Source: Ginglymostoma cirratum (taxonomy: Eukaryota). Taken from it: DNA of 64,000 nucleotides. Numbering within the stretch: the first letter of the stretch is position 1; the number at the start of each line of letters is the position of its first letter. Of this stretch, positions 1 through 60,122 are shown piece by piece. A program made the translations under genes and the position numbers. The notes below the pieces were generated by a model. The model searched no databases and was not told the DNA's origin. It worked only from the letters and a program-made list of their open reading frames with translations. Location of the stretch: assembly GCA_024137785.1 (NCBI GenBank), contig JAHRHZ010000263.1, forward strand, positions 23,581,254 through 23,645,253, given 5' to 3'.

Positions 1-149
1 CCCTTCATCAGAAATGCATTTCTGATGAAGGGTTTAGGCCCGAAACGTCAAGTTTTCCTGCTCCTATGATGCTGCTTGACCTGCTGTGTTCATCCAGCCC
101 CATGCTTGTTATCTCGGATTCTCCAGCATCTGCAGTACCTTTTATCTCT
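1..149 (+). mobile_element. Short palindromic Penelope-derived (pLTR-like) non-autonomous element, cut by the window edge
   Basis: Bases 1-32 are a perfect palindrome (cccttcatcagaaatg|catttctgatgaaggg). The right arm is nearly identical to 35638-35762 and related to 38708-38785 and to the 3' end of the PLE at 8069-8195. Confidence 0.75.
18..53 (+). ncRNA. Minimal type I hammerhead ribozyme motif with intact core
   Basis: Stem I ATTT(18-21)/AAGT(50-53); CTGATGA 22-28; extra A29; stem II GGGT/GCCC 30-41; GAAA 42-45; palindromic ACGT as minimal stem III; predicted cleavage after GTC (C49). Confidence 0.65.
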
Positions 150-2010
150 AATGCTCTGGGTACATGGCTTCAAATCACACCGTTGCAGCTACAGGAATTT
201 AATTTCAATTAACGCATTTGGAATTTTAAGAAGTGTTGATAGTTGTTAAAAAAAAATCCATCTGGTTCAGTAATGTTCTTTACAGAAGGAAATCCTCCAT
301 CCTTATTTGGTCTGCTTCGTTTGCGTTCCTAGTTCCACAGCAATGTGGTTAACTCTGCTATGGCCTAGTGTCACTTGTATCAAATTGCTACAGAGTCTTC
401 AAAGGTTGAAACCAGATAGCATTGCCTTAGAGACCAGAAACAACAGCAAAACTAGTCCTATTGAACTCGTAAAGCTGTCCTTGCTAACATCTGGAGCTTG
501 TATCAAATTTGGGAGAACTATCCCACAGATTAATCAAGAAGCAGTCTGATGTAGTCATATTCACCAAATCACACTTTTCAGACAATATCTCAGATACCAC
601 TATCATTATCCCTGGGAATATCCTATCCTACTGGCAGAACAGATGTCACAGAGATGGTGATACAGTAGTATACAGTGTAGGGAAATTGTCCTGAAAGTTA
701 TCAACCTTGATGCTAGACTCCATGAAGTCTCATGGAATCAGGTCAAACATGGGCAAGGAAACTTCCTGTTGATGACCACCTACCACCCTTCTGGATGATT
801 CCTCTATTTTTAACATCAAATAGAATAAACACTGAGGGTGGTAATGGTACAGAATATACTCTGGCCAGGAGATTTCAATGTCTAACACCTAAGAGTGATT
901 CAGTGCCACCACTGCTGACCAAGCTGGCTGAATGCTGAAAGACATCGTTACAAGACTGGATCTATGGCAGGTTGTAAGAAAATCTAACTTAATCTAGCCC
1001 TCACCAATCTACCTGTTGCAGATGAATTCTGTCCAGGACCATATTGATAGCAGTGACCACTGCCCGGTCCTTGTGAAAATGAAGTCCTGTCTTCACATTG
1101 AGGATATTCTCAATCAGGTTGTGTGGCACTGCTATTTTGCTCGGTGGGATTGATTTCAAACAGATCTAGCAATATTAGAATGGGAATCCATGAGACTCCA
1201 TGGGCAATCAGCAGCAGAATTGGATCCAAACACAATCTGTAAACTCATGACCCAGCTAATTATCCAATCTTCCGCTAGCAGCCAGGGATCAACACTTGTT
1301 CAATGAACACTCCAGGAAGGTATACCTGGAGCTGCACTAGGTATACCTAAAAATGAGGTGACAATTTGATGAAGGTCCAATTTAGGATTACTTGCATCCC
1401 AAACAGCAGATGCACCATGCTAGTCAATCACACAGCTGTGAGGTCTAAGCTCTGCAATCCTGCTACATTCGCCCATGAATGGTTGTGGGCAGTTAAGCAA
1501 CTAACAGGAGGAGGAAGCTCCAGCCTTACTGATGGAGGGACCCAGCACATCAGTGCAAAAGCAAAACTGAAGTATTTTCAACCATCTTCAACCCAAAGTA
1601 CCAAGTGGATTATACATTTTAGACTGTTCTTGAAGTTCCCAACATTATAGATAGAAGTGTTCAGCCTATTCAATTTACACTGTCATATTAAAAAAAAAAT
1701 TGGCTGAAGGCACTCTAAGTTTGTGAGCCCTGACAAAATTTCACAGTACTTGTGCTCCAGAATTAATAGTGCCCCTAAATAAGCTCTTCTAGTTGAGTTA
1801 TGATGCTAGCATCTACCCGATAATGTGGAAAATTGCCTGGATATGTCTAGTGTATATAAAGCTCAACAAATCCATCTGGCCAATTACCACTTCATCAGTT
1901 GACTCTCAATCATCAGAAAGAGCAGGCTGGGAATTCAATGGTGTGTAAGTTTCCCTAATTCATCGAAGCCTGCTCACCATCCACTAGGCATAAGTGTGAT
2001 GGAATACTCT
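150..2010 (+). mobile_element. Decayed L2/CR1-group LINE (tRNA-like head, APE endonuclease, start of RT)
   Basis: Remnants include LLTNIWxLVSNLGELSHRLIKKQSDVVIFT (APE start, about 480-570), SDHCPVL (about 1050) and NYHFISxLSII (about 1880). Many stops and frameshifts. Confidence 0.7.
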
Positions 2011-2011
2011 T

Positions 2012-2985
2012 TAAGAACATAAGAACTAGGAGCAGGAATAGGCCGTCCGGCCCTTCGAGCCTGCTCCGCCATTCAATAAGATCATGGCTGATCTTTTTGT
2101 GGACTCAGATCTACTTACCCGCGCTCTCACCGTATCCCTTAATTCCTTCATTGTTCAAAAAAAAATCTACCTTAGCTTTAAAAATGTTTACTGAACTAGC
2201 GTCAACTACTTCACTGAGCAAGGAATTCCATAGATTAACTACCTTCTGGGTGGAGAAGTTCCTCCTCAATTCAGTCCTAAATCTGCTCCCTCTAATCTTG
2301 AGGCTATGCCCTCTTGTCCTAGCTTCACCTGCCAATGGGAACATCCTCTCTACTTCTATCTTATCTATTCCCTTCATAATTTTATATGTTTTTACAAGAT
2401 CCCCCCTCAATCTTCTCAATTCCAATGAATAAATCCCAATCTACTCAGTCTCTCCTCATAAGTCAACCCCCTCAACTCTGGAATCAACCTAGTGAACCTC
2501 CTCTGCATCCCCTCCAGTGCCAGTACATCCTTTCTCAAGTAAGGAGACCAAAACTGCACACAGTACTCCAGGTGTGGCCTCACCAGCACCTTGTACAGCT
2601 GCAACATAACCTCTCTGCTTTTAAACTCAATCCCTTTAGCAATGAAGGACAAAATTCCATTTGCCTTCCTAATTACTTGTTGTACCTGCAGACCAACCTT
2701 CTGTGATTCATGCACAAGGACACGCAGGTCCCTCTGCATAGCAGCATACTGCAACTTTTTACCATTCAAGTAATAGTTCTTTCTACTATTACTCCTACCA
2801 AACTGTACGACTTCACATTTATTTACATTGTATTCCATTCCCCAGACCTTTGCCCACTCACTCAATGTATCTATGTTCCTCTGCAAAGTTTCACAGTCCT
2901 CTGCACACTTTGCTCTGCCACTCATTTTAGTGTCATCTGCAAACTTTGACACCCTACACGTGGTCCCCAACTCCAAATCATCTGT
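2012..2985 (-). mobile_element. 5'-truncated CR1 LINE (relatively young)
   Basis: ORFs 2416-2976 and 2111-2425 give SKFADDTK...LVRPHLEYCVQFWSPY...RRLRGDL...RTRGHSLKI (CR1 RT C-terminus). TTCTTATG-type 3' tail at 2012-2027. Possible TSD atactctt/atactatt. Confidence 0.92.
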
Positions 2986-3015
2986 ATACTATTTACTTGC
3001 ATGAATAAGTACAGC

Positions 3016-4775
3016 ACTTTTGTCCATGGTTGGACCAAGGCTATAATGAGGCCAGGAGCTGACTGGTCTATTAGAATTTAAACTGATTTCAGTGAGCAAG
3101 GTTATTGGTAAATAAATGCTATTGTTAGCACTATTGATGACACCTTCCTTCACTTTACTGTTAATAAAAGTAGATTCATGAAGTGCCAATTGGACATGTT
3201 GAATTTATCCTGCTATTTGTGTACAGGACATACCTGGACAACTTTCTGCATTGCCTGGTAATGCCACTTTTGTAACTGTACTGGAACAGTTTGGTTAGGG
3301 GCGTGGCAAGTACTGGAGCATGCATCTTTTCTCCTGTTGCTAGAATGTTGTCAGGGCCCATTGCCTTTGCAGTATCCAGAAACTTCAGCCTTTTCTTGAT
3401 AACATGTGCAGTGAATGGAATTGGTTAAAGACTAGTATCTGTGATGCAGTGAACCTCCAGAGGCTGCCAAAACAAATCATCCATTAGGCACTTCTGGCTG
3501 AAGATTTCTCCAAGCGATTAAGCCTTAACTTTGGCACCAATGTGCTAGGCACCCCCATTATTAAGCTTGGGAATATTTGTGGAATATCCACCTCTAGTGA
3601 GTTGTTTAATTACCCACTATCCATTCACAGCGAATGTAGCAGGACTGCAGAACTTTGATTTATTCCATTGGATATTAAATTCCTTAGTCCCGTGCTGTTG
3701 GCACACAAGTAGTCCTGTGGTGTAGCTTTACCAGGTTGACACCTCATTTTCAGGTATGCCTGATACTGCTCCTGGCATACTTTCCTACCTGCTTAATTGA
3801 ACTAGGCTTGATGTTAATGGAAGTGTGAAGGATATCCAAGGTTATGAAGTTGCTGCTGTTGATGGCCCATATCACCTATGGATGACCAGTTTTGAATTGC
3901 TAGATCTATTCAAAGTTAAGATGCCTCCGTTTTGAAATCCATTTGGCATGGTCATAGTGCCACTCATGGAGGGTATCCTCAGTGTGAAGACGGGACTTTG
4001 CCTCCAGAAGGACTATGCAGTGGTCATTCTTACTGATGCCTGCACAACCCTCAGTGCTTCCTCTAAATGGATTTCAAAATGGAGGTGTCTTGATTCAGCA
4101 GTTGATGAGAGTGGTGGGAGGCTTGTGGAACAATGTATTCAGCAGGAACTTCCTTGTCCATGCTTGGCATCTGAAATCAATATTGAGGATTCCTAGAACA
4201 ACTACTTCTCTCCTGTATACCTCTTCTTGATAACTTGCTGGTGGACTAGAAAGTTCTGAGATTTGGTGATGGTGTTGTCTGGGACATTGAAAAGTACAAT
4301 TCTATTGAGAATTACTGTCAGGTGTTGCTTGATTGTGAGGCAGGTCTCCCAAGTTTGACAATAACTCATAGATAATAGTAAGGAGGGTTTTACAGAATCA
4401 ACAAGGCTGAGTTTGCCACTGTTAATTCTGGTGCCTAGATCTATGTCAGATGGTTTATCCTGTTTCACACCGTTTTGAGACTGATTAGCAGTTTGATATA
4501 ACTGAATGGCTTGCTAGATTATTTCATAGGGTAGTTGAGAGTCAATCATATTGTTGTGTGTCTGGAATAGGTCAGACCAGGTAAAGATGATAAGATTTCT
4601 GTCCCTAAAAGGTATCAGTGAACCAGATGTTTTTTATGATAAGCAGCAATAGTTTCACGATCAACATTTGACTTTTAACTCAAATCCCACAACTGGGAAT
4701 CAAACCTAGGTTCCCAGCATATTATCTGGGTCTCCACATTACTAATACAGCAACAATGTCACCACACCATCCCAT
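3016..4775 (-). mobile_element. Decayed L2/CR1-group LINE, same family as 150-2010, opposite orientation
   Basis: Reverse complement aligns by eye to 150-1950 (GPDNI motif near 3355, APE start near 4340-4390, same 5' head at 4490-4775). Confidence 0.7.
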
Positions 4776-6989: not shown

Positions 6990-7962
6990 AGGGACGGATG
7001 TCCTCTTGCTCGGGATCAGAAGTACAATTGTGAAAAGGTATGGTTGCTTCCAATGTAATATCACTGCTGAGCAGCCAGGTTTCAGCTGGGTCGACTACCA
7101 AACAACCTTTTGGTTGAGGGGATATGGGATATACAGCATTCCTAAACGAGAATGCCACTACCATTACAAAATTCATTGGTAAGTATGTAAACTAAGTAAA
7201 TCTGAATGTTCCCCAACCGGAAACCATGGATGAACAGGGAGATCTGCTCCCTACTAAGTCTAGGTCTGAGGAATGCAAGTCAAGCAACCCTGAATTCTAC
7301 AGAAAATCCAGGTACGACCTTCATGAGGCCATTAGAGATGCCAAGAGGCAATACCAAACTAAGCTTGAGACCTAGAACAACCATACAGACATCCACCATT
7401 TGTGGGAAAGCTTACATGACATAACAGGCTACAAAATGAAGTCAAACAGAATTGCAGGCAACAGAACACCCGTACCGATGAGGAAAATACATTCTAGGCT
7501 CGCTTTGGACAGAAGGTCAGTGAAATGCTGTCACCTATCCCAACAGTCACGGATGCACTTGTTGTCACAGTCACTGACACAGACATTAGATTGGCCTTCT
7601 TGACAGTGAACCCACAGAAAGCAACTGGCTTGGATAGAGAGCAGACCAGCTAGCAGGAGCATTTGCAGACGACTGTACCCTCTCCTTACTACAATCTGAC
7701 GTCACCACCTGTTTCAAGAAGACCACCATCATTCCTGTGCCAAAGAAAAGTCATGTTGTAAGGATCAATGACTATCACCTGGTGGCTCTGATCTCAATAA
7801 TTATGAAGTGCTTCAAGAAGTCAGTCATAGCTCACGTCAACCCCAGCCTACCAAATTGCCATTACTCCTTTACAATTCACCTACTGGTACAACAGGTCCA
7901 CAGCAGGTGTCATTTCCTTAGTCCCACATTCATCCGTGGAACATCTGGATCAAGGATACCTA
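6990..7962 (+). mobile_element. Rex1/Babar-type LINE fragment
   Basis: FPNRKPWMN, CFKKTTIIPVPKK and NDYHLVALISIIMKCF motifs; interrupted at 7963 by a PLE terminus. Confidence 0.8.
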
Positions 7963-8062
7963 CGATGTGGAGGTGCCGGTATTGGACTGGGGTGGACAAG
8001 GTCAGAAATCACCCGACACCAGGTTATTGTCCAACAGGTTTATTTGAGAAAAGCTTTTGGAG
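7963..8062 (-). mobile_element. PLE family A terminus; the element resumes at about 9557-9786 and 11778-12138
   Basis: gatgtggaggtgccggtattggactggggtg...aagcttttggag, repeated at 12591-12693. Joined to 9557-9575, the - strand reads CTGAAGAA-GGAG..CTCC-AAAAGCTT, a hammerhead-like core. Confidence 0.6.
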
Positions 8063-8068
8063 TCTGAC

Positions 8069-9556
8069 AGAGATAGCAACAAGTAGTTGGAGTCAGAGAT
8101 GGCACAGTGTGGAGCTGAAGGAACACAGCAGGCCAGGCAGCATCAGTGGAAAAGGAAAATTGACATTTCGGGTCAGGACTCTTCTGCAGAAATGGGGAGG
8201 GGAAGGAAGCTGGGAAATAAATAGAGAGGAGGAGTGGGGCTGGGGAAGGTAGGTGGGATGGTGATAAGTAAGTGCAGGTAGGCAGTGGTGTGGATTGGTC
8301 AGTGAGGTGGGACGGGCGGACAGGTGGGAGACAAGATGGACACATTGTGTCAAGTCAAGGAGACGGGGACGAGAGGGAGGGGAGATTTTAAAACTGGTAA
8401 AATCCATGTTTAGGCCATTGGGCTGTTGGCTCCCAAGGTGGAATATGAAGTGTTACTCCTCCAGATTGCGGGTGGCATCATTGTGACACTGGAGGAGGCC
8501 CAGGATGGACATGTCACCCAGGGAGTGGGAGGGGGAGTTAAGATCGTTCGGGACGGGCAGGTGTTGTCGTTTGTTGCGAACAGAGCGCAGATGCTCTACA
8601 AAACAGTCTCGGAGTCTCTGCTTCGTCTCATCGATGTAGAAGTGGCCACATCAGGAGCAGCAGATGCAATAGACCAAGTTGATGGATGTGCAGGTGAACC
8701 CCTGTCTAATGTGGAAGGTTTATTTTGTACCTTGAATGGAAGCGAGGGGGGAGGTGTAGGGGCAGGTGTAGCACTTCCTGTGGTTGCAGGGAAAGGTGCC
8801 GGGAGTGGTGGGATGAGTGGGGAGTGTGGCGTGGATGAGGAAGTCGCGGAGAGAGCGGTCCCTACAAAAGGCAAGTGGGATTGGGAGGGAAATAAATCTT
8901 TGGTTGTGGGGTCAGATTGTAGGTGGCGGAAGTGGCAGAGAATGATACATTGGATGCGGAGATTGGTGGGGTGATATGTGGGGACAAGAGGGATTCTGTC
9001 TTTATTTTTGTTGGGGGGAGAAGATGTGAAGGCAGAACAGTGAGAAATGCAAGAGATGTGGTTGAGGGCATTTTCGATCATCAGAGGGGGAAGTTACAGT
9101 CCTTGAAATAGGAGGACATCTGTGATGTGTGGGAGTGGAGCACCCCATCTTGGGAGCAGACATGGCGGAAGCAAGGAATTAGGAGTAGGGGATCGCATTC
9201 TTGCAGGAAGGTGGGTGAGAGGAGGTATAGTCTAGGTAGCTATGGGAATCGGTTGGCTTGAATTAGATGTCGGTTTTGAGGTCGTCAGCAAAGATGGAGT
9301 CAGAGAGGTCCAGGAAGGAGAGGGTGGTATCGAAGATGGTCCAGGTGAATTTAAGATTGAGGTAGAAGGTATTAGTAAAGTTGATGAACTGTTCAAGCTC
9401 CTTGAGGGAGCACAAGGCAGCGCCGATACAGTGATCAATGTAGCAGAGGAAGAGGTGGGGGATAGTGCCTGTGTAGCAGCAGAAGAGACTCTGTTCCGTG
9501 TCTCCTACAAAGAGGCAGGCATAGCTTGGGCCCATGCGGGTGCCCATGGCCACCCC
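8069..9556 (-). mobile_element. 5'-truncated Penelope-like element (Neptune-type RT plus GIY-YIG) with 3' hammerhead-like terminus
   Basis: RT: AMGTRMGPSYACLFVG...CYIDHCIG...LKFTW...LSFLDL (9263-9553). Linker RIPLVPTYHP. GIY-YIG remnant SNLVYCICCS*CGHFYIDETKQRLRDCFVEHL (about 8580-8682). Core CTGCAGAAGAGTCCTGACCCGAAATGTC at 8162-8189. Confidence 0.88.
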
Positions 9557-9786
9557 CTTACTCCTTCTTCAGATGTTAGTGAGAGAGGTAGTATCAGACA
9601 CAGAATTTATAAGTAAAAGATCAAAGGGTCACACCACTGTTGAGGATGTACTAAACAAATCTAAGATGCTGTTAAATCTTTAATCATTTAGAATGTTTTA
9701 ATTGATTAATATGTATATGTAAATCCCTAAATTCCTTTGAAGTCACTGTCCTAAGAGAACAAAAGGTTTTAGCAGTGTAAAGAAGA

Positions 9787-11777
9787 TCCTTGAGGCAAGG
9801 AAGGGATGGGAAGGTGAAGGAACCTTGGGTGACAAGTCACGTGGGACATCTAGTCAAGAGGAAGAAGGAAGCTTACTTAAGGTTGAGGAAGCAAGGATCG
9901 GACAGGGCTCTAGAGGGTTACAAGGTAGCCAGGAAGGAACTGAAGAATGGACTTAGGAGAGCTCAAAGGGGGTATGAAAAAGCCTTGGCGAGTAAGATTA
10001 AGGAAAAACCTAAGGTGTCTATACTTATGTGAGGAACAAGAGGATAGCCACAGTGAGGTTAGGGCCGATCAGGGATAGTGGAGGGAACTTGTGTATGGAG
10101 TCGGAGGAGGTAGGGGAGGTCCTTAATGAATACTTTGCTTCAGTATTCACCAGTGAGAGGGACCTTGTAGTTTGTGACGACAGCATGAAACAGGCTGATA
10201 TGCTTGAACAGGTTGATATTAGGAAGGAGGATGTGCTAGAAATTTTGAAAAACATGAGGACAGATAGTCCCCTGGGCCAGATGGTCTCTATGGGAAGTGA
10301 GGGAAGAGGTTACTGCGCCTTTGACAATGATCTTTGCATCCTCACTGTCTACTGGAGTAGTACCAGATGATTGGAGGGTGACAGATGTTATTCCAATGTT
10401 CAAGGAAGGGAATAGGGATAATCCTGGGAATTACAGACCAGTCAGTCTTACTTCTGTGGTGGGCAAATTATTGGAGAGGATTCTAAGAGATAGTATTTAC
10501 GATTATTTGGAAAAGCACAGTTTGATTAGAAATAGCATGGCTTTGTGAGGGGCAGGTCATGCCTCACAAGCCTTATTGAATTCTTTGAAGATGTGACAAA
10601 ACACAGTGATGAAGGTTGAGCAGCGGATGTGGTGTATATGGACTTTAGCAAGGCATTTTATAAGATTCCCCATGGTAGGCTCATTCAGAAAGTAAGCAGA
10701 CATGGGATCCAGGGAAATTTGGCTGTTTGGATGCAGAATCGGCTGTCCAATAGAAGACAGAGGATGGCAGTAGAAGGAAAGTATTCAGCCTAGTACTCAG
10801 TGAACATAGGTGTTCTGCAGGGATCTGTTCTGGGACCTCTGCACTTTGTGCTTTTCATGAAAGACTTGGACGAGGAAGTGGAAGGATGGTTAGTAAGTTT
10901 GTCGATGACACAAAGGTTGGTGGAGTTCTGGATAGTGTGGAGGTATGTTGTAGATTGCAGCGGGACATCGACAGGGTGCAGAGCTGGGCAAGGAAGTGGC
11001 AGATGGAATTCAACCCAGAAAAGTGTGAAGTGATTCAGTTTGGAAGGTCAAATTTGAATGCAGGGTTAATGGCAGGATTCTTGGCAGTGTGGAGGAACAG
11101 TGGGATCTTGGGGTCTACATCCATAGATCCTTCAAAATTGCCACCCGAGTTGATAGAGTTGTTAAGAAGGCGTATGGTGTGTTGGCTTTCATTGGCAGGG
11201 GAATTGAGTTTAAGAGCCATGAGGTTATGCTGCAGCTCTATAAAACCCTGGTTAGACCACACTTGGAATATTGTGTTCAGTTCTGGTCGCCTCATTATAG
11301 GAAGGATGTGGAAGCTTTAGAGAGGGTGCAGAGGAGATTTACCAGGATGCTGCCTGGACTGGAAGGCAGGTCTTATGAGGAAAGGTTGAGGTAGCTAGGG
11401 CTTTTCTCATTGGAGCGAAGAAGGATAAGAGGTGACTTTGATAGAGGTGTACAAGATGATCACAAGCATAGATAAGAGTGGATAGCCAGAGGTTTTTTTC
11501 CCAGGGCAGCAATGACTATTACGAGGGGGCATAATTTTAATGTGATGGGAGGAATGTATAGGGGAGATGTCAGAGGTAGGTTCTTTGCACAGAGTGGTGA
11601 AATGCGCTGCCAGTGGTGGTAGTAGAGTGAGTTACATTAGGGACATTTAAGTGACTCTTGGATAGGCACATGGATGATCGTAAAACATTGGGTATGCAGC
11701 GTAGTTTGATCTTAGAGTAGGCTAATAGATTGGTACAACATCGTGGGCCCAAGGGCCTGTGCTGCACTGTTCTATGT
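9787..11777 (+). mobile_element. 5'-truncated CR1 LINE with target-site duplication
   Basis: ORF2 pieces LNEYFASVFT, GNYRPVSLTSVVGKLLE, QGSVLGP, SKFVDDTK, LVRPHLEYCVQFWSPHY. 3' tail ctgttctatgt. TSD taaagaaga at 9778-9786 and 11778-11786. Confidence 0.93.
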
Positions 11778-11779: not shown

Positions 11780-12575
11780 AAGAAGAGGTGACATTCCAGG
11801 TTAGACAATGCATGTTAGGTGTGAGGCCTTGTTTAGAATCTGTTTGTGTTTTGGTTTGGAGTCAGACTAGTTTTATTTTTAAATTAACTGACTGTCTATA
11901 AATTGAGTGCTTTTTGAACAAAATAGAACGTATCTGCAAATACAGATTCACCCTATAGATTTCATGTGTGTGTGTGAGAGAGAGAATGTGTGTGTGTGTA
12001 TGTGTGAGGGAGACAGAAACATACGCGCGTGCTTGAGAGACTGTGTGTGTGTATGAGAGAGGGTCTGTGTAAGAATGTATGTGTGTGAGAGAGACTGTGT
12101 GCATGAGAGGATCTGTGTGAGTGTGTGTGTATCTGTATNNNNNNNNNNNNNNNNNNNNNNNNNNNNNNNNNNNNNNNNNNNNNNNNNNNNNNNNNNNNNN
12201 NNNNNNNNNNNNNNNNNNNNNNNNNNNNNNNNNNNNNNNNNNNNNNNNNNNNNNNNNNNNNNNNNNNNNNNNNNNNNNNNNNNNNNNNNNNNNNNNNNNN
12301 NNNNNNNNNNNNNNNCCCATGCCCCCCTCCACACACACACTCTGTCTCTCTCTCTCTCACACACACATGAATCTATGCAGTGAATTTGTATTTGCAGATA
12401 CATTCTATGTTGCTGAAAAAACGCACAATTTATAGACAGTCAGTCAATGTGGTGTTTTATAAATTCCTACTTTAGAAATAAAACCAGTCAGACTCCAAAC
12501 CAAACCACAAGCAGATTCTCATCAAGGCCTCACACCTGACATGCACCGTCTGACCTAAAACATTACCTCTTCTTT
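11780..12575. repeat. Imperfect inverted repeat (PLE family A internal sequence with TG/CA microsatellite) around an assembly gap
   Basis: 11780-11975 is the diverged reverse complement of about 12350-12575. (TG)n/(GA)n on the left and (CA)n/(CT)n on the right of the N run 12139-12315. Confidence 0.8.
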
Positions 12576-12590
12576 ATTCTGATAAACATT

Positions 12591-12693
12591 GATGTGGAGG
12601 TGCCAGTGTTGGACTGGGGTGAACAAAGTCAGAAATCACATGACACCCAGGTCATACTCCAACAGGTTATTTGAAAACACAAGTCTTTGGAGC
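12591..12693 (-). mobile_element. PLE family A terminus, second copy
   Basis: Direct repeat of 7963-8062. Confidence 0.65.
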
Positions 12694-12696
12694 CTC

Positions 12697-13558
12697 AATC
12701 TGATAATGGCCGGAAAGAAGCTGTTGCTGAACCTGCTTGTGTGTGTGTTCAGGTTTTGGTATCTCCTGCCTGACGGAAGAGGTTATAGGAGGTCATTACC
12801 AGGGTGCGATGGGTCTTTGCCTTTCTGGGGCAGCGTGCTGTGCAAGTAGAGTTCATGGATGGAAGGTTGGCTTCCATGATGGTCTGGGCTGTGCACACCA
12901 CCTTCTGCAGCTCCTTATGGTCCTGGGCAGAGCAGTTGACATACCTGGCAGTTATGCATCCCGACAATATGCTTTCAATGGTGCATCTGTAGAAGTTGGT
13001 AAAGGACCTTTATGGACATGCCAAATTTCCTGAGCTGTCTAAGAATAAGAGGCATTATTGTGCCTCTGTCAGTGTTGCATTTATGTGGGAAGTCCAGGAC
13101 AGGTCATCACTGTCACTCCACGAAACTTGATGCTCTTCACTCTCTCAGCCTCAGTTCCGATGATGTAGATGGGGGCATGTTCTACTCCTTTCTTTCTGAA
13201 GTTAATCATCAGTTCTTTAGTTTTGATGATGTTGAGAGACAGATTGTTTTCATTGCACCACATCACCAAGCCCTCTATCTCCCTTCTGTATTTTGACATG
13301 TCATTGTTAGATATCCATCCCACTATGGTGGTGCCATCAGTGAACTTGTAGATGGCGTTCGTTTGGAATTTGGCAACACAGTCGCAGGTGTACAGGGAGC
13401 ACAGTAGGACACATCCTTGGGGGGGGCTCCAGTGTTGAGTGTTATTGTGGAGGAGGTGCAATTACCTATCGTCACTGATTGCAGCCTATGGGTCAGAAAG
13501 CTGAGGATCCAGTTGCAGAGAGCAGAGCTGAGACGAAGGTCACACAGTTTTGAGAGCA
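12697..13558 (-). mobile_element. Rex1/Babar-type LINE RT fragment
   Basis: [16 protein letters not shown]...[25 protein letters not shown]...WCNENNLSLNIIKTKELMINFRK. Confidence 0.85.
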
Positions 13559-17542: not shown

Positions 17543-17745
17543 AGAATAAAACAAAGAACTGCAGATCAGAAACAAACAAAAACAGAAGTCGCTGCAGAAA
17601 TTCAGCCGGTCTCTGATATTACAAGGAATGAGGATTTTAGTTAAGAGAAAAGGGTATAAATATTGGAACAAAAACAGAGAACATTGGAAATAGTCAGCAG
17701 ATTTGGCAGCAGTTGTGGAAAGAAAAACAGTTAATTCTTCAGGTA
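17543..17745 (-). mobile_element. Two decayed PLE-terminus fragments
   Basis: aaaacaaagaactgcagat...aaacaaaaacagaagtcgctgcagaaattcagc and aacaaaaacagagaacattggaaatagtcagcag...; homologous to 21759-21859 and 22260-22400. Confidence 0.55.
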
Positions 17746-20955: not shown

Positions 20956-21758
20956 TAGATTATCCCTGATTATGTTTGCTTTCAGGAAGGTAGGCGTAAC
21001 CTGAAAAGTTTAAAAGTTAACTTTATTTAATCTAATCTCAACGCTGTAGTGTGCTGCACATGATATGGTGCTATCGTGTTATATTTTTGCTTGGATAAAT
21101 CTGGTATTTTTCTGATGAATTAGATTTCAATTAGTTGAATTGATTCTGTGAACATTAGGAAATTGTAACAAATACACGTATGCCTTAAACGAAATTAAGG
21201 TAATAGCTGATCAAAGAAATAAGGTACAGTAAGCTTAGTGATAAAGTTACTGATTATGTCAATTTAATTTAAAAGTATTTTAGACAGATGAAAGATCAGA
21301 ACAGGAGTTTTCTATTCATTCCTCAAGTTTGTCCCATTATCCAATTCAGTCATGTTGACTATGTGTCACAATTCCAATAACATGTAGCTGACCCATGTAC
21401 ACCATACCCTTGCTAATAAAAACCTGTTGACCTCAATCTTAACTTTTAATTTAGTCAAGAATCCACAAGCTTTTGATGGAGAAGATTCCACATTTCTGGG
21501 ATACTTTGCATGGAAGAACAGTTTCCTTGTTTTGTTCTTAATGATGCAGCTCTAATTTTATGAAGGTGCCCACTTTTCTGGGTTCTTTGCCAGTGGAACT
21601 AGCTTCTCTGTACTCTATCGAATAACGTATTATTTTAAATACCATAGTTTGATCACCCCTCAACCGTCTACCATAGGTAGTGGTTGAAGCAAACAGTACA
21701 GATACGTTTAAGGGGAAATTTGTCAAGATTCTAAAGGAGAAGAGTGTTATGGTAGACT

Positions 21759-22400
21759 CAAAAACAAAGTTGCTGGAAAAGCTCAGCAGGTCTGGCAGCA
21801 CCTGTGAAGGAAAAAGACAGTGAACGTTTCTGGTCCGATGACCCTTTCTCGGACCTGCTNNNNNNNNNNNNNNNNNNNNNNNNNNNNNNNNNNNNNNNNN
21901 NNNNNNNNNNNNNNNNNNNNNNNNNNNNNNNNNNNNNNNNNNNNNNNNNNNNNNNNNNNNNNNNNNNNNNNNNNNNNNNNNNNNNNNNNNNNNNNNNNNN
22001 NNNNNNNNNNNNNNNNNNNNNNNNNNNNNNNNNNNNNNNNNNNNNNNNNNNNNNNNNNNNNNNNNNNNNNNNNNNNNNNNNNNNNNNNNNNNNNNNNNNN
22101 NNNNNNNNNNNNNNNNNNNNNNNNNNNNNNNNNNNNNNNNNNNNNNNNNNNNNNNNNNNNNNNNNNNNNNNNNNNNNNNNNNNNNNNNNNNNNNNNNNNN
22201 NNNNNNNNNNNNNNNNNNNNNNNNNNNNNNNNNNNNNNNNNNNNNNNNNNNNNNNNNNNAGCAGGTCCGAGAAAGGGTCATCGGACCAGAAACGTTCACT
22301 GTCTTTTTCCTTCACAGGTGCTGCCAGACCTGCTGAGCTTTTCCAGCAACTTTGTTTTTGTTCCTGATTTACAGCATCCGCAGTTATTTTGATTTTTATT
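21759..22400. mobile_element. Palindromic short PLE-derived element spanning an assembly gap
   Basis: 21759-21859 is the exact reverse complement of 22260-22360. The right arm has about 40 extra nt. Degenerate hammerhead core CCGAGAA-A-GGGTC..GACCA-GAAA-CGTT at 22267-22296. Confidence 0.75.
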
Positions 22401-35030: not shown

Positions 35031-35637
35031 TTAAAACCAAATACTTCTGTTGCTTTTGTTCTAGCTAATCACTCTGTTGCTGACAGGTCTGTAGGTCTCA
35101 AATCTGGCTTCTAAAACACTGTCACAGCCCCAAAGCAAGAGTGCCCTGTCATGATTCGCTTCTGATTTTTGTTCCTCTCCCTGTTTCCTCCCCATTCATG
35201 TTGACTGAAGGAAGATATTTAATTTTCCACCAATTAACATAGATTGAGAAATCAGAATGTGTGAGGCTGTGGGCTCAAAGCTGAATCTGTCTACATGCTT
35301 TTTAACACTCTTGTTCAAGTCAAGGAAACTAACATTTCTGTGAGTTCATCTTGTAGAGCAGATATGCCCTAGCACACAACTGATTTGATCTTGATTAGAG
35401 TGTGTGAGGCACATCGAGCTGTCACTGCTGGCAGCAACAGGGTTTGGAGGGGTTGTTGAGGGGGAAAATGACAAGAGGTAAAGGCTGTCTAGCAGCAAAA
35501 GTACCCTGATTCTTGGCTGGAGGGATTGCAGAGGGTCACATCTTGGGGACCGCTTGGATGCCATAGGATCTAGAGTGCAGAATGGAATGGGGGAAATGCA
35601 TGGAAGGTATCGAATGAGGGACAAGGGTGGCAAATGA

Positions 35638-35762
35638 TGAAGGGTCTAGGCCCGAAACGTCAAGTTTTCCTGCTCCTATGATGCTGCTTGGCCTGCTGTT
35701 GTTGATCCAGCCCCACGCCCTGTTATCTCGGATTCTCCAGCATCTACAGTACCTTTTATCTC
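35638..35762 (+). mobile_element. 125-bp PLE-terminus-only insertion with TSD
   Basis: tgaagggtctaggcccgaaacgtcaag...gtaccttttatctc flanked by the direct repeat tggcaaatga (35628-35637 and 35763-35772). Near-identical to 26-149. Confidence 0.85.
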
Positions 35763-38250
35763 TGGCAAATGAAGGGGATGTGATGAAAAAATTAATTGCC
35801 CGTGAAGGAAAGGATGAATATGTTGGAATGGGTATGGAACAGAACAGAGGGATGCTTTGGGTAGGATGAGGATATAAAGAAGTACTGTTGCAACAAAGAT
35901 TTGTATTTCACTGTAAATGTTTGAAGCATCTGCTAGTAACAATATTATAAACCTTATTTGCTTGATATTTGCAAATTCAAAGTTTTCTTAAATTACAGAA
36001 GTTTGTTGTGATCAAGGTTATTTTATTTACAACACAGTCAAACATTGTTAGTGCATGTTCTTGTATACTATATTTCATTAAAATGAAAAAAATTGTCACC
36101 TTGAGTATTTTTTTTCTCTTGATAAGTTGGAGTATTGTAATTTGGTACAGCATGGAATTGTATGACCTCATTCATTTGGCTCTACCAGTTGTTGGGAATT
36201 AGAAACAGGAATGTTTTGCTGGTTACCACCAGACCATTTTATTTCCCCTAGTGTAATGTTGTTCAAGCAGTACTGGCTCAGCAGATTATTCACATTTTAT
36301 TGCACTTGTGAAAGTAGAGGATACTTGTGTCAGATTTGGAATTTTTGTTGAACCAATATTTATTTCTATGCATCAAGAAAATAACTTGAGGCATTGGAAC
36401 AAATCTAACATTATACAAAGTAATGGCTTTATCGTCGTGACTTTCAAATGGACTGACATGTATGGAATTGAAGGGGCAGTGGCAGGATGGATATGAATTT
36501 ACCTAAGAGTTAGAAATTGGGGAGTAGTAAGTAGTAAATGGTTGATTTTTTAAAAAAAAATTGGGGAGGACGCTGTGTTACTCGGGGATCGTTATTTAGG
36601 GTGCTGACTTGAATTTGTGTACAAGGAGGATAATATCAAAATGTAGTTAAACATTAGGACCATCGTAATCCACTTCAGAAGGACATAGAAAATCTGTGGC
36701 TGGGGCTATTTTTGTGCTGTATGAAGGGAGTAAATCTGATTCATGTAGGGAATTCTCAGATAATCTGAGGGGTAACCACACTTCATGCTTGTGGTTGAAA
36801 ATCCAATCAGTTCTAAGGGAACTGCAATTGTGGTGGTGGACTAACAAATGAGAAAGTGGGAAAGATACTTTACCTGGATTACTAGATGTATTACTGTTTG
36901 TTAGCATTTATTGTGAGGTATTAATATAAAAATCTTTTTACAAACATGAAAAATCTTGTCATATAATTGACAACACGTAGCATCAAGTGTTATGATAAAG
37001 TAACAGTTCTTGTCTGAGTAATACTCTAATTCTAAATTTGTAAGAAGAGACATCTGATTTTGACTATCAGTTTAAAAGAAACAGATTTTTCTGTTAGTAA
37101 AATAGATGAGTAGACATTAGCAATATTTATTTGTGCGTTCTCCTATACAAACAGCTTATATGTAACTTAAACAATCTTAATTCTAATTATTTATGGCTGG
37201 GTATCATTTTTAATTGAAAAGCCAGGAACAGACTTCCTAATCTATTAAAATGTTTAAAGTTTAACCATCACAGTGGAGGAATTATTCAGACATTTCTTTG
37301 GCATTTTCTTCAAGGTATACATTGTTATAAGTTTGATTATGGAAAGACTTTGCTGCAGCCTCCTAACAACATAGTGTTGTATCATAAAGGAGAACAAGCA
37401 TAAATTGTTTAAACTTCATTATATGTAAGCCTGATTTTCCAAAATTGTATGGAGTTATGAAGTTAGGACTGCACAGAAAACAGGAATTCGGTCTGTTTGA
37501 GTCCTTGCTGCCTTTCTGTAGAACAGTCTAGTCAGTCCAATTTCCCCACTCTATTCTTATACCATGAATGTTGTAGAAAGTGCGTTCTAAAGAAATGCCA
37601 TTCGCTTTGTAAAAATAGTTCTTTCTCCCGTCACATCTTTTTGCTCAAATCCGTCCTGGTCCTTCACCACATCAGCTAATAAGAACAGCTTGTCGTCTTC
37701 TACCTTTTTACGTAAATCTGTGTAAATAAAAATCTTCGCACCTTTAACAGATCGTCACTTAATTTCTTCTGTTCCAAGAAGAGAGAGTCCAGCATTTTTG
37801 TTTTTTTTTAAGCTAAATTCCCTAAGCCCTGAAACCATTCAGATAAGTCTCCTGTGCACTCTTTGAAGGACTTCCACTTCTTTCCTAAACTGTAGTGACA
37901 AAAATTTGATTCAGTACTCTGGTTTTGAGCTTTTAAAAGTTCAACCTGTCATCTTTTTGACTTGATAGATCTATTGATGGAACTTTAAGATTCTTTTATG
38001 CTTTGTTAACCACTCTCTCTGTGTCCTTCCACCTTCAAAAATTGATGTAAATGATCTCTCAGGTCCTTCCACTCCTGCAAATTCTTAGAACTGAGCTATG
38101 GAGGCCATGTTCCTCCGTTGCCATCCCTTCTACAAAAAGGCATCATCTTGCACCTCTCTATTGAGTTACATCTGCCACATGTCTGCTTGTTCTGTTGCCT
38201 ATATATGTATCTATTGTGGTTGATTGAAAACATCGTCACAGTTATCACAC

Positions 38251-38785
38251 ATAACAAGGCATAGAGCTGGATGAACACAGCAGGCCAAGCAGCAGCAGAG
38301 GAGCAGGNNNNNNNNNNNNNNNNNNNNNNNNNNNNNNNNNNNNNNNNNNNNNNNNNNNNNNNNNNNNNNNNNNNNNNNNNNNNNNNNNNNNNNNNNNNNN
38401 NNNNNNNNNNNNNNNNNNNNNNNNNNNNNNNNNNNNNNNNNNNNNNNNNNNNNNNNNNNNNNNNNNNNNNNNNNNNNNNNNNNNNNNNNNNNNNNNNNNN
38501 NNNNNNNNNNNNNNNNNNNNNNNNNNNNNNNNNNNNNNNNNNNNNNNNNNNNNNNNNNNNNNNNNNNNNNNNNNNNNNNNNNNNNNNNNNNNNNNNNNNN
38601 NNNNNNNNNNNNNNNNNNNNNNNNNNNNNNNNNNNNNNNNNNNNNNNNNNNNNNNNNNNNNNNNNNNNNNNNNNNNNNNNNNNNNNNNNNNNNNNNNNNN
38701 NNNNNNNTGCTTGGCCTGCTGTGTTCATCCAGCTCTACACCTCGTCATCTCAGATTCTCCAGCATCTGCAGTTCCTACTATCTCT
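38251..38785. mobile_element. Palindromic short PLE-derived element with 16-bp TSD spanning an assembly gap
   Basis: Left arm 38251-38307 is inverted relative to right arm 38708-38785. TSD gtcac(a/g)gttatcacac at 38235-38250 and 38786-38801. Confidence 0.85.
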
Positions 38786-45660: not shown

Positions 45661-46089
45661 AAACTTGAAAGGGTGCAGAAAAGATTTATCTTCTTCAAAA
45701 AAGCAAAGTTGTATTTTATATAATGCATAGATATAAGCAGGTTCTCTTTATATTGTGGGAGTCAAATCCAGCACTGAATTTTTGGCAGCCTGTTTAGAAA
45801 GCAGACCTGTGTTTTCTGTTTTTTTTTAAAATATGTGCAACAGGCAAATTGATTATTGAGGCAGGTTTATAATGCATTATCACTGCTTCCCTAATTCTAG
45901 CATCTGTTTTTACATTTCAAATTCATATTTATATAATCTTGTATTCTAAATATATGAAACGTCATGCTTTGACAGACTTGCTTGTTTCGTATGTTGAGAA
46001 GAATCCAGCACACAAAACAAGTAAGTGAAAATGAAAATCAGTTAAAGAAAAAAAGTTAAAGATGGTATCAAATTGAAAGAAAATGTGGA

Positions 46090-55424: not shown

Positions 55425-56570
55425 TTATTAAATCAACAGAATACCAATGGATTCCCAATATCAGGACTGATTGCAGAAGCAGTAATACAGAATTTAGAAT
55501 GGACAGCCCTCCCCACTATACAACCCAAACTTTGGGTCCAATATGTAGACAACACCTTCATGATTATTAAACACATGAAACTAGAAGAAACTCACCGACA
55601 TATATACAACATCCTTACTGGGATAAAATTCACGAAAGAAGAAAACAACAACCGATTACCCTTCCTGGACATGATAGTCGAACTCAAAAACGATGGGAAC
55701 ACCAGACTAGCGTACATAGCAATACCGCACAAACAACCAGATACTGAATTACACTAGCAACGACCCCAATGCCCACAAACAGAGATGCATCAGGACACTA
55801 TTTAAACAAGCCACAATACATTGCAGCAACCTGGAACTAAGCAAAGCAGAGCAGGAGCATTTACATGGAGTCTTCGAAAGGAATGGATACCTGAGAAGCA
55901 CAATCCGCCGTTACCTCCAAAACAGATTGCAACAGGAAGACGCAACCTGATCAGGCTCATTAATCACCCTACAATACATCAAGGACACTTCAGAGATGAC
56001 CACAAGACTACTGAGACCCCTAGGTATCAGAGTAGCTCTCAAACCAGCAGCCCCCTACGACAGCTACTGACAAGCGTAATGGATCCTATACCCAAAACCA
56101 GCAAAATGGTATAACATACAAAATACCATGCAAGGACTGTGAGAAACACTACCTAGGCTAAATGGGAAGAAAACTGGCAATAAGGTTACATGAACACCAA
56201 CTAGCCACCAAGAGACACGACCAATTCTCACTTGTCTCACTACACACCGGCAATGAGGGACACTAATTCGACTGGGACCACACTTCTGTTATCGCACAAG
56301 TCAGACAGACATGCCAGGGAATTCTTTGAGGCCCAGTATGCCAACTGGAGCTCCATCAACAAATGCATTGGATGAGAACCTGTGTATAAACCACTGAGAA
56401 ACAGAATCTGAAGTAATACCAACCACCCCAGCAAACTGAGGCATATAAATAACAAGCAGGACAGAACACCGACGTTTCACCGGAGGTGCCCTGCCGATGT
56501 TACCTAGCAGGGTGACGAAACATTTGCATCCAAACCCACTGGCTTAGCAAGCATGTCTATGACGTCCAGT
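55425..56570 (+). mobile_element. 5'-truncated Penelope-like element (Poseidon-type RT plus GIY-YIG) with 3' hammerhead-like terminus
   Basis: RT: GFPISGLIAEAVIQNLE...KLWVQYVDNTF...IKFTKEENNNRLPFLD. GIY-YIG: ITYKIPCKDCEKHYLG*MGRKLAIRLHEH (about 56110-56197). Core CTGCCGA-T-GTTACC..GGTGAC-GAAA-CATT at 56491-56524. Confidence 0.88.
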
Positions 56571-58809: not shown

Positions 58810-59327
58810 TTGGCATAGATGTCTTCCAGTGGTCAGTGTATACCCATGGATGGTGATATCTCGTATTTTGTAAGGCGTGATTTTGAGAGCGTAATTATGT
58901 AATACTGTTGCTTAACTATTTTATGAGACCGGTCTCCCAGCTTTGGCACTAGCTTCCAGATGTTAGTAAAGTGGATTTTGTGGGTCAGTAGGACTGGATT
59001 TGCTGCTGCTGTTTCCTAACTTAAGTTGAATTCATTCCCTGGAGTTTTAGCAGTTCGATGCAACTGCGTGCTCAGCTATGTTAGAGGGCACTTAAGAGTC
59101 TACCACATGGATGTGATTCTGAAGTCACATGTTAGCCAGACCAGGCAACAACAGATTTCCTTCCGTAAAGAATATTGGTGAACCAGATGAGTTTTTAGAA
59201 CAATTGACTTTCTAAATTCTAGAATTTATAAGTTAAATATTAAATTTTGCCAGCTGCCATGTTGGAATTTATGCTCCCAGAGTATTGGCCTGGACATCTG
59301 GATGAGCAGATCATACCACTACACCCC
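58810..59327 (-). mobile_element. 5' end of the L2/CR1-group LINE family (tRNA-like head plus APE start)
   Basis: The - strand begins GGTGTAGTGGT..., passes through the same 5' block as 150-420, then reads TNIWKLVPKLGDRSHKIVKQQ. Confidence 0.7.
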
Positions 59328-59984
59328 AATCTCTCTCCTCTCTGATCCGCTTCTTGTAACCAATTTTGCTATTTATAAGTCCAAGATTCCACTTTCTAAT
59401 CATGTTCTGCCACCTTCCATGATGTACATACCTTCCCTCTCCAGTTTCTCTAACCTCGTGTGTTGTTTAGAACTGTATCGTTAAGTTTATTTGCCTCTCC
59501 CTCAACCTTGTTTGCAAATGCATCACTTCACACTTCTTTGCATAAATTCCACCTTCCACTTGTCTGCTTGTTCTGCTAACCAATCTGTGTCCTGTAGCAG
59601 TATATTTGTATCATTTTTAATGTTTGTCACACTTGCCAAGTTTGTATTGCTGGCACAGTTTGAAGTTTTACTCTATATTCCAATATCTAAGTCCTTTACA
59701 TGTACTCAATCAAAGCAGGAGCCACAGCACTGAGTGGGGAATATCTGTGTCTACTATCCTTCAGTCTGAAAAATCTTTACCATGATTCATTATTTTCTGT
59801 CTGTCATGCGTGTTTTTAATCCATGCTGGCACTGACTCATCCATTCTTGTGAGCACCAATTTTGTTTGCTGGCATTTTGTGATCCTTTGTCGAGTACTTT
59901 AAAATCTAGACAATATTAACTCCGTTTCCTTCAACAGTCTTGTTTAGTACTTCATCAGAAACTTCAACTAGATTAATGAAGTGT

Positions 59985-60122
59985 GAAAATAAGACAAAGA
60001 ACTCTGGACAGTAGAAATCTGAAACAAAAATCGAAAGTGCTTGAGAAACTCAGCAGGTCTGGCATCATCTTTAGAGGGAAAAACAGTTAATATTTTGAGT
60101 CCTGTGACCCTTTGTCAGAAAG
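59985..60122 (-). mobile_element. Decayed PLE-terminus insertion
   Basis: The - strand reads ttctgacaaagggtcacaggactcaaaatattaactg...ccagacctgctgagtttctc; family of 22260-22400. Confidence 0.7.

Follow-up and report, generated by a model that had tools for sequence, protein, structure and literature searches.

Penelope-like elements (PLEs) with an endonuclease (EN+ PLEs; Neptune, Penelope/Poseidon) combine a reverse transcriptase (RT) with a C-terminal GIY-YIG domain and carry a hammerhead in their pseudo-LTRs (pLTRs) (PMC11167929, PMC8557442, PMC3846280). In these accounts, insertions are 5'-truncated, can bear an inverted 5' copy with a palindromic junction, have a 30-40 bp tail on one end and TSDs of variable length, occur also as solo pLTRs, and break short-read assemblies. 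Transcription is reported to start within the upstream pLTR (PMC6765202), and an internal promoter is described (PMC2377424). For a lizard PLE studied in vitro, the tail reflects two RT start sites, both target strands are cleaved and extended, truncation of the RNA at its 5' end shortens the product, and the first 172 nt of the ORF are required, the hammerhead being dispensable (PMC11167929).

Minimal type I hammerheads of metazoan PLEs have CUGAnGA and GAAA boxes, an extra nucleotide after A9, a G10.1-C11.1 pair, palindromic positions 15.2-16.2 and a short stem I. Each genome has numerous single motifs, which fall into several consensus families, and most PLE hammerheads are such single motifs of truncated PLEs (PMC4209133). 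Animal non-LTR retrozymes are non-coding, pLTR-related and equipped with type I hammerheads as well; they form head-to-tail repeats with at least two complete hammerheads and yield monomeric linear and circular RNA. Their solo "monomer" copies are regarded as offspring unable to transpose, and they are reported in one chondrichthyan genome (PMC7229834; bioRxiv 10.64898/2026.07.22.740005). In plant LTR retrozymes, a type III hammerhead lies in two direct LTRs with a 4-bp TSD (bioRxiv 10.64898/2026.07.22.740005).

We analysed 64,000 nt of Ginglymostoma cirratum (JAHRHZ010000263.1), termed the window, to which all coordinates refer. The short hammerhead-bearing units in it (Table 1) are probably the 3' ends of four PLE families, likely dead-end insertion products of autonomous elements elsewhere in the genome. 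These 3' ends are pLTRs that contain a minimal type I hammerhead; a tail of 37-40 nt is present in some. This reading is based on fixed common 3' ends, two ends per family, head-to-head arms in TSDs, RT/GIY-YIG bodies on the same termini, and six decayed cores out of seven. The sequence-only reading was correct in tracing the units to PLE termini that bear minimal type I hammerheads; the alternative it mentioned, 5'-shortened PLE insertions, proved to be the better one. The locus shares the domain and insertion features of EN+ PLEs listed above, from the RT with GIY-YIG to the assembly breaks, and the sequence features of their hammerheads. It departs from EN+ PLEs in that most copies comprise just a single pLTR or two paired ones, their 5' ends clustering at the hammerhead, and in that the window is without an intact ORF. 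These particular shark families were not described in the literature searched.

Table 1 PLE-derived pieces mapped in the window
Feature	Position	Strand	Details
Inverted arm of family A insertion at window start	1..16	-	Perfect 32-bp palindrome 1-32, 100% self-inverted; remainder beyond window
Family A pLTR with tail; sole intact minimal hammerhead 22-49	17..149	+	
Family C pLTR, 3' part	7964..8068	-	Fixed family 3' end at 7964
5'-truncated Neptune-type PLE (linker-based assignment)	8069..9556	-	C-terminal half of the RT, linker (CX4CxxC), GIY-YIG, UTR rich in pyrimidines, decayed hammerhead at 8162-8189 and tail
5' half of the family C hammerhead (9557-9575) together with upstream sequence	9557..9795	-	5' limit approximate
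Family C solo stub, 113 nt, 5' end in hammerhead loop II	12586..12698	-	8-bp TSD 12578-12585/12699-12706
Old, degraded family B remnant(s), apparently two incomplete 3' ends arranged in tandem	17545..17744	-	
Tail-less inverted arm of family B on the left side of the 400-N gap	21756..21859	-	TSD 21745-21755
Tailed direct arm of family B containing the decayed hammerhead 22267-22296	22260..22400	+	TSD 22401-22411
Family A solo stub, 5' end within core (C3 lost)	35635..35763	+	9-bp TSD 35629-35637/35764-35772
Tail-less inverted arm of family A on the left side of the 400-N gap	38251..38307	-	TSD 38235-38250
Family A direct arm, 37-nt tail	38708..38785	+	TSD 38786-38801
5'-truncated Poseidon-type PLE (linker-based assignment): RT, GIY-YIG, decayed hammerhead 56491-56524	55425..56570	+	Limits approximate
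Tailed solo stub of family B containing the decayed hammerhead 60089-60118	59985..60122	-	TSD: none found

The map includes items absent from the sequence-only reading, namely the 11-bp TSD around the mirror pair at 21756-22400 and the copies at 12586-12698(-) and 17545-17744(-). A tblastn match at 61106-61330 (E 0.002) was dismissed as chance.

Seven motifs of the form CTGAnGA...GAAA-CGTY had been listed. Hammerhead-like segments are present at all seven places, but the plain pattern matches one, the others being changed or cut. The motif at 22-49 had been called intact, and it is the single match of a strict descriptor in the window (0 in 40 dinucleotide shuffles); it has the core, an extra A after A9, a 4-bp stem II, palindromic ACGU and C49, after which cleavage is predicted. 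An Rfam scan of the window gave two chance matches and no hammerhead. The remaining cores are broken: 35635 lacks C3, 8162-8189 carries A6>C and C15.2>U, 22267 carries U4>C and G8>A, 56491 carries A6>C, 60085-60120 carries G8>A and G12>A, and the split copy is interrupted by 1.5 kb. Stem II of these putative ribozymes has 4-6 bp versus 7-8 bp in Schistosoma (PMC4209133). A further pattern match at 59925-59958 is due to chance, and an initiator-like match just 5' of the core, seen by eye, was dropped as too degenerate.

In public runs, A6 of the core is conserved at 8186 in 94-99% of the family's reads or contig depth, and the stems covary over the seven aligned motifs (76% of cells paired versus 3-46% when slid; covariation 0.35). 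Hence, the ribozyme is under selection in the source elements. The monomer folds preferentially into a non-hammerhead structure (-9.3 versus -4.0 kcal/mol), the computed ACGU self-duplex reaches merely -1.7 kcal/mol, and no unit was more stable than its shuffles (z -0.08 to -1.44). Changes common to 17-149 and 35635-35763 pair both unit ends over 10 bp, with a z of about -1 that is not significant.

The 3' ends at 149, 35763 and 38785 are in register and fall in the same column as the end of the RT-bearing copy at 8069, so that the short units and the RT/GIY-YIG remnant have the same 3' end. Each family has two alternative 3' ends, tailed and tail-less, and the corresponding difference in arm length is 37 nt at 38k and 37-40 nt at 22k. 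TSDs are 8, 9, 11 and 16 bp long; the two proposed earlier, around the 35635 stub and the 38k pair, are real. Two mirror pairs consist of head-to-head arms inside the 11- and 16-bp TSDs. One of them, 38251-38785, had been taken for a 125-150 nt unit and is instead composed of two inverted arms (57 + 78 nt visible) around 400 N, with the core not visible. In total, three insertions are cut by gaps or by the window edge. The copies 26-149 and 35638-35762 had been described as almost identical and the whole system as recently mobile; in the alignment of 17-149 with 35635-35763, 121 of 129 columns are the same (6 substitutions and 2 gaps), which amounts to about 6% difference, and the 4.7% substitutions between these two best copies are not recent at shark rates.

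The PLE bodies noted before at 8069-9556(-) and about 55425-56570(+) were borne out by protein matches. The segment 8330-9556 is similar to 51 long proteins, the best at E 3e-65, of which most contain PF00078 and 14 contain PF01541, and to shark and ray protein models at up to E 7e-131; 55449-56405 matches proteins P0053 and P0055. A direct Pfam scan of six broken frames yielded 0 families. In both bodies, the ORF remnant is followed downstream by the hammerhead, 8162-8189(-) and 56491-56524(+), respectively. The body at 8069-9556 contains CNHRKCYTC in frame, a CX2-5CxxC linker between RT and EN, which defines Neptune (PMC8557442) and is common to Nematis. A motif of this type occurs in 49 of its 51 relatives, although the regular expression can also catch EN cysteines. 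The linker was absent from the three examined of the seven relatives of 55425-56570 (P0052, P0053, P0055) and from the frames of the remnant itself. Judged by the linker, the labels Neptune for 8069-9556 and, with the zinc-finger linker missing, Penelope/Poseidon for 55425-56570 were therefore right. The Neptune-type body sits in loop II of a family C hammerhead; the split copy proposed there is real, as reads and contigs in three of four runs join 8047-8051 to 9557-9562.

Both bodies had been considered autonomous partners of the short units. They are 5'-truncated and full of stops and frameshifts, and the Neptune remnant and the 22-149 unit have only 76-78% identity. The supposed "partners" in the window are dead fragments of sister families. 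No DNA of an intact autonomous copy with the exact 17-149 sequence was seen. The zebra shark RT-EN model P0060 ends with LMKGLRPKRQ, of which 9 of 10 residues equal the frame of 22-51; this is one of 178 proteins, a predicted model of a sister type, with E 0.007 on an 11-residue match. Pairwise BLASTP of P0060 against one 8150-8760 frame, mostly non-coding, gave no match. There is weak evidence that the UTRs of the P0060 type and the Neptune remnant differ, the better sign being length (about 130 codons versus about 170 nt).

Dead-end insertion could proceed as follows, with the steps from target nicking to stub decay modelled on the lizard Poseidon element in vitro rather than on a shark Neptune. 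A tandem PLE would be transcribed from a start within the upstream pLTR, and the RT-endonuclease would nick both target strands in a staggered manner, giving the 8-16 bp TSDs. cDNA would be primed at one of two internal RNA sites, resulting in tailed or tail-less ends. Priming behind the downstream pLTR would produce long, variably truncated copies (340-1490 nt here), and priming behind the upstream pLTR would lead to run-off at the RNA 5' end near the hammerhead, or to RT stalling at stem II, and thus to stubs of 113-135 nt. Priming on both nicked strands would create a head-to-head pair with one tailed and one tail-less arm. As the cDNA would run past the scissile bond, the template RNA would have been uncleaved. 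The stubs would be without the stretch of RNA beyond the start sites, on their downstream side, on which the lizard PLE protein depends; hence, they are predicted to be immobile and to decay neutrally.

Public runs gave additional views of copy number. Loose ends with heterogeneous AT-rich flanks stack at the family ends (1203 contigs in X11 and 279 in X1 at 7964; 500 and 132 at 8103). In the DNA run X11, the pLTR has 2.6x the depth of the UTR and 0.4x that of the highest ORF bin, and in three runs the family C pLTR has merely 2.2-3.4x the depth of its upstream sequence. In the organism A runs (X1, X22), pLTR bins are 23-28x as deep as the adjacent UTR and 9-15x as deep as the mean ORF bin. 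This excess is confounded, since most reads belong to the 17-149-type subfamily, whose body may be less than 80% alike to the reference; an expansion of mini-elements would also fit. Depth in X22 drops from 1897 to 488 between 8192 and 8200, but we rejected the step at 8198 as proof of a mini-element because the loose ends reveal sister-subfamily reads. First-mate counts in X22 are equal on both strands. Run X23, whose 1152 reads trace to at most about 22 start positions, was left out.

Relative to C3, short-unit 5' ends lie at about -5, +1 to +4, about -1 and +11 to +16, i.e., four of the seven measurable 5' ends fall in a 30-nt interval at the hammerhead. Under memoryless truncation, such clustering has P 0.007 at the most favourable mean and 0.0003 at the fitted mean, for a small n of 7 and an interval picked after viewing the data. 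We therefore regard it as very unlikely that the short copies are the short end of a smooth, random 5' truncation from the downstream pLTR with no favoured stop. The three long copies of unlike lengths (about 340, 1146 and 1488 nt), the high 5' truncation general in PLEs (PMC8557442) and the missing depth step in X11 would suit that explanation, but blastn and nhmmer found no 40-105 nt stubs of families A or C in the window. The cluster is likely caused by run-off from the upstream pLTR of the mRNA or by RT stalling. A sharp modal length, suggested earlier as a test of an independent element, is not decisive because run-off from a normal PLE mRNA also gives one. That the units are hammerhead-excised monomers, linear or circular, which were then reverse-transcribed, as proposed for non-LTR retrozymes, is extremely improbable. 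The intact core, the retained A6 and the covarying stems agree with it; however, such monomers should start after C49, and every measurable 5' end is found 12-32 nt upstream of the predicted cut, which largely refutes the idea, with 3' ends about 60-100 nt downstream of it, no tandem to give two cuts and the unfavourable monomer fold.

The sequence-only reading had favoured a retrozyme-like independent family. At 113-141 nt, with no ORF of note and homology to a PLE terminus, the units are indeed non-coding and pLTR-related. In the window, though, TRF found no head-to-tail array of the unit and self-BLAST no direct tandem, copies being solo or inverted, and no measurable unit end lies at the ribozyme cleavage site; membership in non-LTR retrozymes thus fails. 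The ends of the units match PLE RT start sites rather than ribozyme cuts. A plant LTR retrozyme was rejected as well, given the type I topology, the solo or inverted arms and the TSDs of 8-16 bp. We consider it unlikely that the 17-149/35635-35763 type is an independent SINE- or retrozyme-like mini-element with its own internal promoter, mobilised in trans by a PLE RT-endonuclease. The 5'-end cluster, the pLTR excess in the organism A runs and the common diagnostic changes with 10-bp end-to-end pairing in both copies speak for it, as do non-autonomous PLE derivatives (bioRxiv 10.64898/2026.07.22.740005; PMC8557442) and a rotifer case in which pLTRs were enough in cis for one trans-mobilisation (PMC3846280). 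Against it stand the missing tandem, the ends at RT start sites, the hammerhead frame recurring at the end of P0060, run X11 without pLTR excess, the six broken cores, and the finding that the PAc template must include sequence past the tail (PMC11167929). As to a tRNA-like head such as that of tRNA-derived SINEs, ARAGORN, which covers intact genes, found 0 tRNA genes in the window. Similarly doubtful is the extended proposal that the 125-135 nt 17-149-type unit is a self-propagating PLE parasite in this shark lineage, with its own internal promoter fixing the 5' end at the hammerhead, a terminal stem built from subfamily changes and hairpin transcripts that the host would oppose by ADAR editing of the ribozyme core. 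If a mini-element did exist, it would be a very small non-tandem PLE parasite, among the smallest retroelements, and a link between solo pLTRs and animal retrozymes. It is also hardly probable that misassembly, instead of real head-to-head insertion, produced the mirror pairs at the gaps and at the start of the window. Inverted flanks occur at all three gaps and at none of 150 random positions, two of the gaps measure exactly 400 N, and the 22k arms are 100% identical over 101 nt, two core mutations included, which may be due to assembler collapse or arm-to-arm conversion. Yet the arms differ at 4 of 41 aligned letters at 38k and at 32 of 221 at 11.8-12.6k, have unlike family ends (tail/no tail) and lie within TSDs; the inverted repeats explain where the assembly breaks.

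Dead-end insertion makes the window a clear, ordinary illustration of how PLE insertions are built in a shark. Two aspects are of modest use to specialists. The cluster of 5' ends among the stubs would be a genomic read-out of the transcription start or an RT stop and would also show the copying of uncleaved RNA. The tailed/tail-less arm pairs are consistent with priming on each of the two nicked strands.

With regard to RNA, no pile-up of ends occurred at the predicted cut, and no unit-length go-back joint was among the 15 joints listed of 383; the polyA fragmented library is ill-suited to both, and the former is not evidence against cleavage. Hammerhead pattern scans gave 0 hits in viral contigs, 0 in genome contigs, and 0 and then 1 in metagenome contigs; the latter (L001) has only the 34-nt hammerhead in common and no PLE ORF match in 5895 nt. 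ADAR hyper-editing of repeat dsRNA is documented for lizard Penelope and palindromic frog Harbinger, among others (PMC5625713). Unlike there, we have one candidate cluster of polyA reads, without matched DNA; it has only A>G changes with adenosines after a 5' G spared, as in those examples, and looks ADAR-edited.

The hammerhead units of the window are real and are ordinary termini of Penelope-like elements (PLEs). Window self-comparison together with sensitive searches gave four families, A–D, which make up ~4.1 kb or 6.5% of the called bases (GC of the window ~0.39).

Copies of the four PLE families in the window
Family	Position	Remark
A	17-149	mirror at 1-16
A	35635-35763	
A	38251-38307 and 38708-38785	arms
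A	8069-9556	RT-bearing
B	21756-21859 and 22260-22400	arms
B	59985-60122	
B	17545-17744	decayed
C	7964-8068 plus 9557-about 9795	
C	12586-12698	
D	about 55425-56570	

Cleavage by hammerheads follows the NUH rule, and hammerhead numbering is used throughout. All seven hammerhead sites listed in the sequence-only reading exist, but their description was idealised, as a single core (22-49) is perfect. Site 35635 has lost C3, A6 is changed to C at 8186 and at 56494, site 22267 carries U4>C and G8>A, site 60085-60120 carries G8>A and G12>A, and the hammerhead of the split copy is interrupted. The pattern CTGANGA-N5-30-GAAA has 13 matches (6.4 expected), which include only 22-45 from these sites. A minimal-hammerhead descriptor without mismatch matches once (22-49; 0 in 40 shuffles), with up to one core mismatch twice (mean 0.25 in 20 shuffles), and with up to two mismatches four times, once outside any repeat. 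The motifs of the window escape Rfam detection. At the family level, the motif is conserved: the core A at 8186 is carried by 99% of the depth in X11, a DNA run of organism B, and by 97% and 94% in X1 and X22, public runs of organism A. In an alignment of seven motifs (one row misaligned, structure taken from one of the rows), 76% of cells pair versus 9-46% in slid controls, and both sides are changed in 4 of 8 pairs. A lone hammerhead, 88% identical to 17-50, also lies in a contig from a metagenome collection (L001, 3797-3830, minus strand); its flanks are unrelated, and the contig does not match any PLE ORF.

Encoded in 8069-9556 are a PLE RT reduced to its C-terminal half, a GIY-YIG domain, and a CX4CxxC linker. 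As such a linker is described as a mark of Neptune or Nematis (PMC8557442), the copy is assigned to one of these. Family D lacks the linker, as do the three relatives checked of seven, and is therefore of the Poseidon type. Both remnants are 5'-truncated with stops and frameshifts; thus, neither is the autonomous partner proposed for this window. The 3' end of 8069-9556 is 76-78% identical to 17-149, and this Neptune remnant belongs to a sister subfamily. It sits in loop II of the hammerhead of another PLE family, with a possible 5-bp target-site duplication (TSD; 8064-8068/9557-9561, one mismatch); the target of the short solo copy (stub) 12586-12698 likewise contains CTGATAA. Alignments of two ray gene models, P0061 ("divergent protein kinase domain 1C isoform X2") and P0115 ("chitinase domain-containing protein 1 isoform X1"), cover 75-97% of the PLE query; both models are exonised or mis-annotated PLE sequence.

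The units end as PLEs do. In family A, four copies share a common 3' column, and the RT-bearing copy is one of them. Public runs were aligned to 7874-9823 (65449 and 15008 contigs, 48619 and 1152 reads), and the results given here draw on 24 of the 4446 loose ends, 15 of the 383 joints, and 40 of the 954 variant rows. Among the ends listed, those of family C accumulate at 7964 (1203 and 279 contigs) and those of family A at 8103 (500 and 132 contigs), with AT-rich flanks of low agreement, and a further accumulation at 8088 includes the tail. The 38k insertion consists of a tail-less inverted arm and a direct arm 37 nt longer inside a 16-bp TSD; the 22k insertion has the same layout (arm difference 37-40 nt, 11-bp TSD). 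Both show the pattern published for PLEs, namely 5' truncation, an inverted copy at the 5' end, junction palindromes, and a 30-40 bp tail on one end (PMC8557442, PMC3846280); the same sources describe PLE insertions as hard for short-read assembly. Inverted flanks occur at 3/3 N-gaps (12139-12315, 21860-22259, 38308-38707) versus 0/150 random positions, and position 1 also lies within an inverted repeat. Adjoining the family C stub, a microsatellite-bearing inverted pair (11778-12138/12316-12576, 76% over 247 nt) flanks the 177-N gap. The lizard element PAc has two RT start sites, and its tail spans the stretch from one to the other; both strands of the target are cut and extended, a shorter RNA 5' end gives a shorter product, and the process requires 172 nt at the start of the ORF but no hammerhead cleavage (PMC11167929). 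Our proposed origin for the pairs of a tailed and a tail-less arm is priming at two such sites on both nicked strands. Among the joints listed for X11, low-depth contigs join 8144-8150 back to 8096-8103, giving ~50-nt direct duplications inside the pseudo-LTR (pLTR), without the hammerhead.

The 5' ends could be measured in seven insertions: four fall between about -5 and +16 relative to the first base of the core, whereas the other three insertions are 340-1490 nt long. Sensitive search of the window found no shorter stubs of family A or C. Memoryless truncation gives P 0.007 at best for this cluster, with small n and an interval chosen after looking. In PLEs, the upstream pLTR is where transcription begins (PMC6765202, PMC2377424), and RT is able to initiate right behind a pLTR (PMC11167929); hence, synthesis primed behind the upstream pLTR would reach the RNA 5' end and, by run-off, leave a fixed-length solo pLTR. 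We give this origin of the cluster about an even chance, and consider RT stalling or fold-back at stem II a somewhat less likely alternative. Because either would yield a sharp length, the proposed test, by which a sharp modal length indicates an independent element, is weakened.

That the 17-149 type is itself an independent mini-element is improbable. By definition, a non-LTR retrozyme has two or more complete units arranged in tandem (bioRxiv 10.64898/2026.07.22.740005; PMC7229834), whereas the window holds no tandem unit, and those 5' ends that could be measured are 12-32 nt upstream of the predicted scissile bond and are thus not ribozyme cuts. Moreover, the zebra shark RT-EN model P0060 (1 of 178 fetched proteins) continues through a pyrimidine-rich UTR for ~130 codons, and its last residues, LMKGLRPKRQ, match the frame of 22-51 at 9/10 positions (E 0.007, meaningful mainly by position). 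Therefore, hammerheads of this type do occur on an RT-EN body, one whose UTR exceeds that of 8069-9556 in length. Depth, which for contigs is no copy number, points both ways. In organism A, the family A pLTR reaches 23-28x the UTR and 9-15x the mean ORF bin, and X22 falls from 1897 to 488 between 8192 and 8200. This step is confounded because most pLTR reads there are of the 17-149 type (9396 loose ends at 8107 and 5182 at 8158, among the ends listed), whose own UTR would not align. In X11, the pLTR has only 2.6x the UTR, 2.0x the mean ORF bin, and 0.4x the highest ORF bin, and the family C ratio is just 2.2-3.4x in three runs. Changes shared by the two best copies pair the unit ends over 10 bp, G-U pairs included (23-33 with 137-147; 35635-35645 with 35751-35761), which favors a unit, but the fold is no better than shuffles.

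The claim of recent mobility finds no support. Between 23-149 and 35635-35763, there are 6 substitutions and 2 gaps over 129 columns. At a shark rate of 7e-10 per site per generation (CI 1.4-14.1e-10; PMC10587355), 4.7% divergence corresponds to ~34 million generations per lineage (17-170 million by our arithmetic), an upper bound because source differences, RT errors, and CpG sites are included. The 38k arms differ at 4/41 letters, three resembling CpG decay. Over 101 nt, the 22k arms show no difference, which may reflect assembler collapse or conversion between the arms.

We saw no accumulation of molecule ends in the RNA reads, from a library ill-suited to showing one; lizard data likewise report none (PMC11167929). 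A cluster of 1845 polyA reads (X22 loose ends at 8159), selected by alignment break-off among the ends listed and compared by hand with 23-52, has just six differences, all A>G (A29, A36, A44, A45, A50, A51). Three adenosines remain unchanged, precisely the ones that follow a G (chance 1 in 84). Depletion of 5' G is an ADAR signature, and lizard Penelope is heavily edited (PMC5625713). As a lead, the cluster looks like ADAR hyper-editing, which would strike the GAAA box; X22 overall has no excess of A>G or T>C. Strong duplexes would be expected from the arm pairs, with computed energies of -208 and -67 kcal/mol.

Single minimal hammerheads from truncated PLEs, thousands per genome, were described in 2014 (PMC4209133), and a 2026 preprint links pLTRs with animal retrozymes, one chondrichthyan included (bioRxiv 10.64898/2026.07.22.740005). 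Our search of the published literature found no description of these shark families. In the whale shark, introns show an expansion of PLEs (10.1101/443036). Here, PAN3 exon 1 lies at ~19538-19897 (+; E 3e-11 to a PAN3 chain), and the PLE copies from 21756 onward are probably within PAN3 introns. If so, the 22k pair would give the pre-mRNA a hairpin of at least 100 bp. The exon encodes a CCCH zinc finger. The window is vertebrate genomic DNA, and since its repeat-derived protein remnants have their nearest matches in gene models of sharks and rays (Rhincodon, Stegostoma, Chiloscyllium, Hypanus), the source is probably a shark. Many LINE-like RT fragments, putatively CR1-type, are mutually similar (65-80%; 1288-3812, 10456-11504, 45196-48608, 51508-53057, and others). 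A 29-bp near-perfect palindrome (41562-41590) and a 72-bp inverted repeat (78%; 14222-14293 with 14625-14696) are unrelated to families A–D.
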